From the NCBI RefSeq assembly GCF_030384885.1, contig NZ_CP128613.1: 64,000 nt of DNA; one strand, 5' to 3'. Within the stretch, counting starts at the first letter, position 1; each line of letters begins with the position of its first letter. Made by a program: the position numbers. The stretch comes from Escherichia coli (GTDB taxonomy: Bacteria > Pseudomonadota > Gammaproteobacteria > Enterobacterales > Enterobacteriaceae). Below, one piece after another: positions 1 through 3,000 of this stretch.

Positions 1-3000
1 TACAAGTCAGCGGCGATGCCCGTCGCGTAAAAACCATCGCCGATCGCATCGGCTTTATCTCGATTCACAGCCAGGTCACTGACTTGCTGGCATTCTGCGC
101 CTTCTTTGTTATTGGGCTGATGATCGGGATGATCACCTTCCAGTTCAGCACATTCAGCTTCGGCATGGGGAACGCTGCCGGTTTGCTATTCGCCGGAATT
201 ATGCTGGGCTTTATGCGTGCTAACCATCCGACATTCGGTTACATTCCGCAGGGTGCGTTAAGTATGGTGAAAGAGTTCGGCTTGATGGTATTTATGGCAG
301 GTGTTGGACTAAGCGCTGGTAGCGGTATTAATAACGGCTTGGGCGCAATTGGCGGTCAGATGTTGATTGCCGGATTGATTGTCAGTCTGGTGCCAGTGGT
401 TATCTGCTTCCTGTTCGGTGCTTATGTATTGCGAATGAACCGCGCACTGTTGTTCGGCGCAATGATGGGCGCACGCACCTGCGCGCCGGCAATGGAGATC
501 ATCAGTGATACAGCTCGCAGTAATATCCCGGCGCTGGGCTATGCGGGCACTTACGCAATCGCCAACGTCCTGCTGACGCTGGCAGGGACAATCATCGTCA
601 TGGTATGGCCAGGATTAGGATAAAACTGAAGTTGCCCTGAAAATGAAATTTTTTTGCACAACCGCAGAACTTTTCCGCAGGGCATCAGTCTTAATTAGTG
701 CCACTGCTTTTCTTTGATGTCCCCATTTTGTGGAGCCCATCAACCCCGCCATTTTGGTTCAAGGTTGGTGGGTTTTTTGTTATCTAAAATTTATCTACTA
801 CCCGGCAACCCTCTCAACCATCCTCAAAATCTCCTCGCGCGATAGCGGCTTACGGTCGGTGACAAAATGCAGCGTCATCCCCTCAATAAACGCATCAAGC
901 GCGCGGGCGGTTCCGGGTTCAAACCATTGTTCGAGCGTTTGCTGACTGCGCTGCATCCAGTTTTGCATTACCGTTTTTAATAGCGGTTTTCGGCTAGCCA
1001 GCGCGTAGAGCTGGTACATCAGCTCCATGTTATCCGGCGTTGCAACCTGTGAGCTGTAGATCATATCGGTGATAGCCTGGCATGCGCCCGGAGCATCACT
1101 AACATCGCTAAAAAATGCCTGATATTGCCGGGACATGATCTCGGTAAAACTGCTGAACGCCTCCAGCAACAACTCATCAATCCCTGAAAAATAGTAGGTC
1201 ATCGATCCTAATGGTACCCCGGCAAGGGTAGCGATTTTGCGGTGCGTAACGGCATGTATTCCGTAAAGTTTCACCGCCTCCAGTGTGGCCTGGATGATTT
1301 TTTCTCGCCGTTGCGGATCGTTAGCGCGACGCATGTCATTTCCTCTCTCTGCAATTGTGTACAAATGTACACAACCTTGCTAATGTTGTCTTCCCTCTTC
1401 TTATTTTGACGTGATCTATGACCGTAAATTCTTCACGTAATGCATTGAAACGCCGAACCTGGGCGCTGTTTATGTTCTTCTTTTTGCCGGGCCTGTTAAT
1501 GGCGTCCTGGGCAACTCGTACACCTGCTATCCGCGATATTCTTTCTGTTTCGATCGCTGAAATGGGCGGAGTCCTCTTTGGTCTGTCGATCGGTTCAATG
1601 AGCGGTATTCTCTGCTCGGCGTGGTTAGTGAAACGCTTTGGGACGCGTAATGTCATCCTGGTCACGATGTCCTGCGCATTGATCGGGATGATGATATTAA
1701 GTCTGGCACTCTGGCTGACATCGCCCCTGCTCTTTGCCGTTGGTCTCGGCGTCTTTGGGGCAAGTTTTGGTTCTGCAGAAGTGGCGATAAACGTTGAAGG
1801 TGCCGCCGTTGAGCGAGAAATGAATAAGACGGTTTTGCCGATGATGCACGGTTTTTATAGCCTGGGCACGCTGGCAGGCGCTGGTGTCGGGATGGCACTG
1901 ACGGCCTTTGGCGTTCCGGCAACGGTGCACATTTTATTGGCGGCGCTGGTAGGCATCGCGCCTATTTATATCGCCATTCAGGCAATCCCTGACGGTACGG
2001 GCAAAAATGCTGCCGATGGCACCCAGCATGGTGAAAAAGGCGTACCTTTTTATCGCGATATCCAGTTGCTGCTGATTGGTGTCGTGGTTCTGGCGATGGC
2101 CTTTGCCGAAGGTTCTGCCAACGACTGGTTACCCTTATTAATGGTTGACGGTCACGGTTTTAGCCCTACTTCCGGCTCGCTGATTTATGCCGGTTTTACC
2201 CTGGGGATGACTGTTGGACGCTTTACCGGCGGTTGGTTCATCGACCGTTATAGTCGCGTTGCCGTGGTTCGGGCCAGTGCACTGATGGGAGCGTTGGGTA
2301 TTGGGCTGATTATTTTTGTCGATAGCGCCTGGGTCGCTGGGGTGTCTGTTGTACTTTGGGGACTGGGTGCCTCGCTGGGCTTCCCGCTGACCATTTCTGC
2401 CGCCAGCGATACCGGCCCCGATGCACCGACCCGCGTCAGCGTGGTAGCAACGACCGGTTATCTGGCTTTCCTCGTCGGGCCGCCGCTGCTGGGCTATCTC
2501 GGCGAACATTATGGATTACGTAGTGCAATGCTGGTTGTACTGGCGCTGGTTATTCTTGCGGCTATTGTCGCGAAAGCCGTCGCCAAACCCAATACCAAAA
2601 CGCAGACGGCGATGGAGAATAGTTGATGAGCATTAAATTAATTGCGGTAGACATGGATGGTACTTTCTTAAGCGATCAAAAAACCTATAACCGTGAGCGG
2701 TTTATGGCTCAGTATCAGCAGATGAAAGCACAAGGCATTCGCTTTGTGGTCGCCAGCGGGAATCAATATTATCAGTTGATCTCTTTCTTCCCTGAAATTG
2801 CTAATGAAATTGCCTTTGTGGCTGAAAACGGCGGTTGGGTTGTAAGCGAAGGCAAAGATGTTTTTAATGGCGAGCTGTCGAAGGATGCGTTTGCTACTGT
2901 GGTGGAACATTTACTGACGCGCCCAGAAGTGGAAATTATTGCCTGCGGAAAAAATAGCGCCTATACCCTCAAAAAATATGACGATGCCATGAAAACGGTG

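Follow-up and report, generated by a model that had tools for sequence, protein, structure and literature searches.

RybB small RNA gene with a sigma-E-type promoter and its own terminator between ybjL and rcdA in Escherichia coli

Results

The window, as the whole 64-kb stretch of Escherichia coli DNA analysed here is called, begins with the 3' part of ybjL (1–623, + strand), a gene of the aspartate:alanine antiporter family (Pfam Asp-Al_Ex, 153.5 bits; RefSeq annotation). The next annotated protein gene, rcdA (ybjK; 798–1334, − strand), codes for a TetR-family regulator (Pfam TetR_N and TetR_C_31; RefSeq annotation) and is convergent with ybjL. In the gap between the two lies rybB (700–778, + strand), the gene for the 79-nt small RNA RybB, with transcription starting at G700, as judged from Rfam family RF00110 and from alignment with b4417 of K-12. 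When the whole window was scanned with Rfam at gathering thresholds, RF00110 was matched at 703–781 (+) with 104.8 bits (E 1.7e-20), well over its gathering score of 40 bits and over the full length of the model (positions 1–79 of 79). The model begins 3 bases inside the RNA, hence 703 in place of 700. A BLAST search with K-12 rybB gave 700–778 at 97.5% identity. In K-12 MG1655, b4417 is annotated as 'small regulatory RNA RybB', has a length of 79 nt and lies between rcdA and ybjL. The arrangement in the window, with rybB on the strand of ybjL and convergent with rcdA, is also the annotated one in K-12 and in RefSeq; both flanks are annotated alike in E. coli 2013C-4282, whose DNA is identical over the 301 bases compared, and the ybjK-ybjL intergenic region is the published location of rybB (PMC1804206). 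The whole window is collinear with 825–889 kb of K-12 in reverse orientation, at about 95–97% identity. The original prediction, which had proposed a 79-nt RNA gene between ybjL and rcdA and an Rfam scan for RybB as a check on it, is borne out in the gene, in its location and in the family match. Its coordinates, 666–778, are also exact, since the −35 element begins at 666 and the annotated RNA gene ends at 778.

Of 5426 complete E. coli genomes, 5418 carry the rybB sequence. Where the DNA is identical, RefSeq/PGAP records list no feature for the RNA. Copies of rybB were also seen in records labelled as plasmids, several of them of 0.7–5 Mb and others of 36–74 kb; the size of the former suggests chromosomal sequence filed as plasmid.

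Upstream of the gene the elements of a sigma-E-type promoter were found. The published consensus of this promoter class consists of GGAACTTTT at −35 and GTCAAA at −10, and the rybB promoter has been described as a near-perfect match to it that is conserved in gamma-proteobacteria (PMC1804206). With G700 taken as +1, the −35 element AGAACTTTT lies at 666–674 (−34 to −26, + strand) and matches the consensus in 8 of 9 bases, and the −10 element GTCTTA lies at 688–693 (−12 to −7, + strand). Further upstream, at 640–655 (−60 to −45, + strand), there is an A/T-rich tract, AAAATGAAATTTTTTT, with a conserved A-run followed by a T-run at −53 to −45, which is likely to act as the UP element of the rybB promoter. 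The motif GAACTT-N15-GTCNNA occupies 667–693 and ends 6 nt before the 5' end of the RNA, so that transcription from it would start at GCCACUG. Allowing a spacer of 14–16 nt, this is the only exact match in the 64-kb window, against 0.23 expected by chance; at least one match was present in 23 of 100 shuffles, so the motif count alone is weak evidence and not decisive. It is the position of the motif together with its phylogenetic footprint that makes the predicted promoter convincing.

For the footprint, 120 loci were retrieved from species-representative genomes by an exact 25-nt pattern corresponding to RybB +3 to +27, and the upstream regions, 110 distinct sequences from Enterobacterales, were lined up on the RNA start. 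The genera covered include Escherichia, Salmonella, Klebsiella, Enterobacter, Kluyvera, Serratia, Yersinia, Xenorhabdus, Providencia and Sodalis. Positions −34 to −27 (AGAACTTT) were 85–100% conserved and −13 to −7 were nearly invariant, with G-12, T-11, C-10 and A-7 present in all 110 regions. The 13-nt spacer between the two blocks carried almost no information, and the A-run and T-run at about −53 to −45 were conserved as well. Only the −35 block, the −10 block and the upstream A/T tract stood out in this way, which is the signature left by a promoter of two blocks preceded by an UP-like element.

The promoter in the window is base for base that of K-12, and it is by this identity that transcription of rybB here would depend on sigma-E. 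Such dependence has been shown experimentally for the Salmonella and E. coli K-12 promoters, which are identical or near-identical in sequence (PMC1804206, PMC3326320, PMC4102768). Salmonella rpoE mutants retain little more than background activity of the rybB promoter (PMC1804206). The promoter is among the active sigma-E promoters that were analysed for UP-element effects (PMC3326320), and it ranks with the strongest of its class (PMC1804206, PMC3326320, PMC4102768). It could be argued that RybB is made in this strain as the 3' end of the ybjL transcript, by read-through and processing, and that the promoter-like motif is non-functional. A simple scan detected no separate terminator between the ybjL stop (623) and rybB, so some read-through from ybjL into the rybB terminator is plausible. 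As the origin of RybB this is nevertheless extremely unlikely: −35 and −10 blocks that are near-invariant across genera while their neighbours vary are unlike a 3' UTR, and the promoter is that of K-12, with rybB fusions dropping to background in Salmonella when rpoE is lost. Transcription from a dedicated sigma-E-type promoter is the reading followed below.

The RNA itself shows the organisation of a class I sRNA, in which a Rho-independent terminator hairpin followed by an oligo-U tail forms the Hfq-binding module. Its 5' end, GCCACUGCUUUUCUUU (700–715, + strand), is the 16-nt target-recognition region or seed; it is identical to that of K-12 and lies outside the conserved helices, the first 30 nt of the RNA being unpaired in the conserved structure. 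It should be noted here that the invariance of nt 3–27 across the species set is an artefact of retrieval, as the search pattern covered +3 to +27, and does not count as evidence. A Rho-independent terminator hairpin spans 734–774 (+ strand) both in the Rfam consensus structure and in the minimum free energy (MFE) fold. The outer stem has 12 bp, 734–745 pairing with 763–774, and the short inner helix, 748–751 with 755–758, is less regular (85% paired). Read from the sequence, the U-tail TTTTTTGTT (773–781, + strand) forms the 3' end of RybB and would be the binding site for the proximal face of Hfq; it is nearly invariant across species and leaves six U after the hairpin.

The folding energy of the 79-nt RNA, −25 kcal/mol for a long 3' hairpin and then U6, is modest when set against shuffled sequences (z-score −2.17, with equally good folds in 10 of 200 shuffles). 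Across 75 distinct aligned sequences, pairing in the outer stem is kept at 97.4%, with compensatory changes in 6 of the 12 pairs, as in CCCAUCAACC/GGUUGAUGGG of Escherichia against CCCGAUAGUC/GACUAUCGGG of Yersinia and Xenorhabdus. The observed covariation score was reached by none of 500 shuffles, and when the 3' partner was slid by 1–3 columns as a control only 16–54% of the positions paired. The closing pair of the inner helix (52/56) also covaries, occurring as UA, AU and GC. A 4-bp CCAC/GUGG helix at the 5' side of the MFE fold was rejected as a conserved feature, its A-U pair being lost in species with GAGG at +31 to +34. The simple terminator scan, which models no sigma-E promoters, did not report the hairpin at 734–774, because it allows loops of 3–8 nt and the RybB loop exceeds 8 nt. 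A sigma-E promoter and an intrinsic terminator had both been proposed for this gene from the sequence alone; the motif at 667–693, unique in the window and footprinted across 110 upstream regions, agrees with the first, and the hairpin and U-run at 734–778, with their covarying stem, agree with the second.

Comparison with K-12 revealed that the promoter and nt 1–55 of the RNA are identical in the two strains and that the remainder of the gene carries two differences. At window position 755 (+ strand) RNA position 56 is changed from C to U (C56U), and at 768 (+ strand) RNA position 69 is changed from A to G (A69G). A third difference, T at 790 where K-12 has C, lies downstream of the gene. C56U replaces the A-C mismatch of K-12 by an A52-U56 pair in the inner helix, at the position that covaries. 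A69G converts the U41-A69 pair to a U-G wobble, a pair seen at the same position in other species (UG:2), and it also removes an in-frame TGA. Both substitutions are compatible with the predicted hairpin. With the 79-nt gene as query and a match of at least 99% counted as exact, the allele of the window was present in 151 of 5420 E. coli records (about 2.8% of complete genomes) and that of K-12 in 4497 (83%). The rarity of the allele, and the exchange of a U-A pair for a wobble, could be taken to mean that rybB is present but impaired in this strain, with weaker termination, stability or Hfq binding. We consider this very unlikely, since U-G is a standard pair that other species carry at this very position, C56U gains an A-U pair where K-12 has a mismatch, the predicted hairpin is intact with an Rfam score far above threshold, and seed and promoter are unchanged with respect to K-12.

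The loss of the TGA has a consequence for gene prediction. The ORF list places a 71-aa ORF at 730–945 (+ strand), with a GTG start inside RybB (+31) and running into rcdA; from 798 onwards it shares its DNA with rcdA, which lies on the other strand, and two thirds of it is antisense to that gene. In K-12 the same frame closes after 12 codons at TGA (GGT-TGA-TGG), whereas the window reads GGT-TGG-TGG, and it is only because of A69G that the frame is open here. Could the locus then encode a small protein, either this one or one of two further ORFs over the locus, of 43 and 45 aa, with the similarity to an RNA being incidental? The ORFs exist mechanically, and the 71-aa frame is indeed open in this strain. 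None of the three, however, has a Pfam match. Among the 120 homologous loci the GTG start is absent from 45, where the codon is GAG or GGA, and in most of the others, K-12 included, the frame meets an early stop, usually after 8–12 codons. Conservation here follows the pairing of an RNA helix and not codons. The small-protein reading is effectively refuted, with next to no probability left to it. The ORF is spurious, as the original prediction had already taken it to be, and a by-product of one substitution in the predicted terminator stem: neither its start nor its frame is conserved, and it belongs to no matched protein family. Mechanical ORF calling will put this false 71-aa ORF in the gap in strains with the A69G allele.

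The 3' end of rybB also overlaps a site of prophage integration. The ybjL-rybB-rcdA interval is interrupted immediately after rybB (at about 793/794 of the window) in some 1196 of 5422 E. coli genomes. In one of them, FDAARGOS_1302, the insert is a P2-like prophage of about 33 kb whose integrase adjoins rcdA; the phage arm matches Klebsiella phage 4LV2017 and its relatives. Its two junctions share the block ATGGGTTTTTTGTTGCCT(A/G)AAATTTAT, 27 bp that correspond to 768–794 of the window, so the window carries an empty P2-like attachment site that covers the last 11 nt of rybB. Two haplotypes of the empty site were found. One, GTTGCCTGAAATTTAT, has the sequence of the phage core and occurs in 1402 genomes, and also in E. 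albertii, E. whittamii and many other genera; the other, GTTATCTAAAA(C/T)TTAT, is present in 2331 genomes, among them K-12 and the window. The idea that the K-12-type haplotype is refractory to integration was ruled out by 545 further genomes with an attR-type partial match that keep this haplotype. Integration therefore uses both haplotypes, and the crossover must lie left of the variable bases, within the 3' arm of the putative terminator and the U-tail. The hotspot as such has been described before, as 'rybB ncRNA ... Rybb (P2)' (PMC3032704) and as hotspot #29, at which Felsduovirus prophages integrate within rybB (PMC10121019). The 27-bp identity block opens with the base changed by A69G, and an effect of the allele on integration could be imagined from this. 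That the combination of C56U and A69G is non-neutral, altering either the efficiency of prophage integration or the termination or stability of RybB, nonetheless seems unlikely.

It had also been claimed that the window contains no RNA gene besides RybB, and this part of the original prediction does not hold. K-12 annotates rybA and zbiJ as ncRNA genes in the homologous stretch, and BLAST located both homologues: rybA, which overlaps the small protein gene mntS, at 34333–34672 (+ strand; 98.2% identity to K-12), and zbiJ at 49722–49817 (+ strand; 99.0% identity). Rfam added two matches to the REP/BIME-derived naRNA4, at 24391–24468 (− strand) and 49595–49665 (+ strand). By ARAGORN and Rfam the 64-kb window contains no true tRNA or rRNA gene. 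An 85-nt tRNA-Gly called by ARAGORN at 52352–52436 was discarded, as it lies inside the 762-aa ORF of dinG and gives no Rfam match at E<=10.

Discussion

Our data indicate, with a probability of about 97%, that positions 700–778 of the + strand are the rybB gene of E. coli, equipped with a sigma-E promoter and a Rho-independent terminator of its own, the roles of sigma-E and Hfq in this strain being those expected from the literature. The call is built on the family match, the synteny, the promoter footprint, the covariation of the terminator and the non-coding status of the locus. RybB at ybjL-rcdA is real, but it is also ordinary, well studied and already known. The use of the finding lies in annotation quality alone: labelling the locus as rybB averts a false call of a 71-aa protein and flags the adjoining prophage attachment site, and it adds no new biology.

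If the RNA works in this strain as the literature describes, the accumulation of unfolded outer-membrane proteins would activate sigma-E and RybB would accumulate in turn. Hfq would bind it through the 3' U-tail, and the 5' end GCCACUGCUUUUCUUU could then pair with ompC, ompW, ompA, ompF, tsx, fadL, fiu and other mRNAs, blocking their translation and speeding their decay. Repression of this kind would lower the folding load of the envelope and feed back on sigma-E activity. It has been reported that sigma-E induces RybB along with MicA, and that with Hfq these accelerate the decay of omp mRNAs, so that the stress is relieved and sigma-E is dampened (PMC1804206, PMC4102768). Hfq contacts such sRNAs via the terminator-derived 3' oligo-U (PMC4911921), and the 5' end of RybB pairs with its targets either in the 5' UTR or close to where the coding region begins (PMC4911921 and references cited there). 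For the RybB of the window, Hfq binding and repression of omp mRNAs would be expected on the strength of these reports.

One of the targets lies in the window itself. fiu, which is listed among the validated targets of RybB (PMC4086111), is located at 45722–48004, and its 5' UTR contains CAGUGGC at 45646–45652, the complement of RybB nt 1–7. A duplex of RybB nt 1–30 with the 5' region of fiu was predicted by RNAduplex at −19.9 kcal/mol, a value that 26% of random 180-nt windows equal or better. In the window the heptamer CAGTGGC is found 14 times, with 8 expected, and the seed complement at fiu is at chance level.

Among the known small RNAs the closest relative is RybB of K-12 (b4417) and of Salmonella, with which the gene in the window shares the locus, the length of 79 nt and the architecture of the terminator. 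The likeness to K-12 extends to an identical promoter and identical nt 1–55, the 16-nt seed among them; the differences are C56U and A69G in the terminator region and the C of K-12 at window position 790. MicA (SraD) and MicL resemble RybB in their sigma-E-type promoters, in their dependence on Hfq, in the repression of omp or lipoprotein mRNAs and in the logic of feedback (PMC1804206, PMC4102768). They are unlike it in sequence, locus and seed, with MicA lying in the luxS-gshA intergenic region and MicL inside cutC; among these sRNAs the window matches the RybB model alone in Rfam. MicV and VrrA of Vibrio cholerae are functional analogues, without bearing on the family assignment made here, being controlled by sigma-E and repressing the synthesis of outer-membrane proteins. 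MicV is reported to have a conserved domain for seed pairing in common with RybB (PMC6694218); both RNAs come from another genus and differ from RybB in sequence outside the seed.

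Results and Discussion

RybB had been taken in the original prediction to be the only RNA gene of the window, and this is contradicted by a homologue of the K-12 ncRNA gene rybA at 34333-34672 (+; 98.2% identity). The rybA homologue has no Rfam match at gathering score, and it overlaps the small-protein gene mntS, whose CDS (34400-34528) is 100% identical. A homologue of a second K-12 ncRNA gene, zbiJ, lies at 49722-49817 (+; 99.0% identity) and adjoins one of two Rfam matches to naRNA4 (RF02564), at 49595-49665 (+) and 24391-24468 (-), each of about 74 bits. The naRNA4 matches are REP/BIME-type extragenic palindromes, and where the minus-strand match lies, collinearity with K-12 shows a minor interruption. 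ARAGORN also called an 85-nt tRNA-Gly(GCC) at 52352-52436 (-). This call is a false positive, because it falls within the 762-aa dinG ORF (52032-54320, -) and because Rfam yields no hit to it at E<=10.

Between dinG and rhlE, about 4.3 kb (54278-58555) has no counterpart in K-12, which carries ybiA there. The C terminus of its 670-aa ORF (54466-56478, -) matches a SopA-like HECT-type E3 ligase domain (Pfam SopA_C, 54.9 bits), and on this basis the protein may be a type III effector. For the 561-aa ORF at 56767-58452 (+) neither a Pfam nor a PADLOC match was found.

The gene fiu (45722-48004) is a listed RybB target. Its 5' UTR contains CAGUGGC (45646-45652, +), complementary to RybB nt 1-7; the motif occurs 14 times in the window against 8 expected, and is thus not rarer than chance, so that the match does not establish pairing.

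From the ybjL stop codon to rybB (623-700) no separate terminator was detected by a simple scan limited to hairpins with 3-8-nt loops, which also missed the rybB terminator. Transcription of ybjL may extend by read-through to the rybB terminator. The 16 nt 3' of this terminator form two haplotypes among empty sites of P2-like (Felsduovirus-type) prophages, and occupation is seen for both. In the window the attachment site (768-794) is empty and overlaps the rybB 3' end at 768-778. In about 1196 of 5422 complete E. coli genomes the site is occupied by an insertion, both junctions of which share the identity block ATGGGTTTTTTGTTGCCT(A/G)AAATTTAT. This prophage hotspot at rybB has already been described (PMC3032704, PMC10121019).
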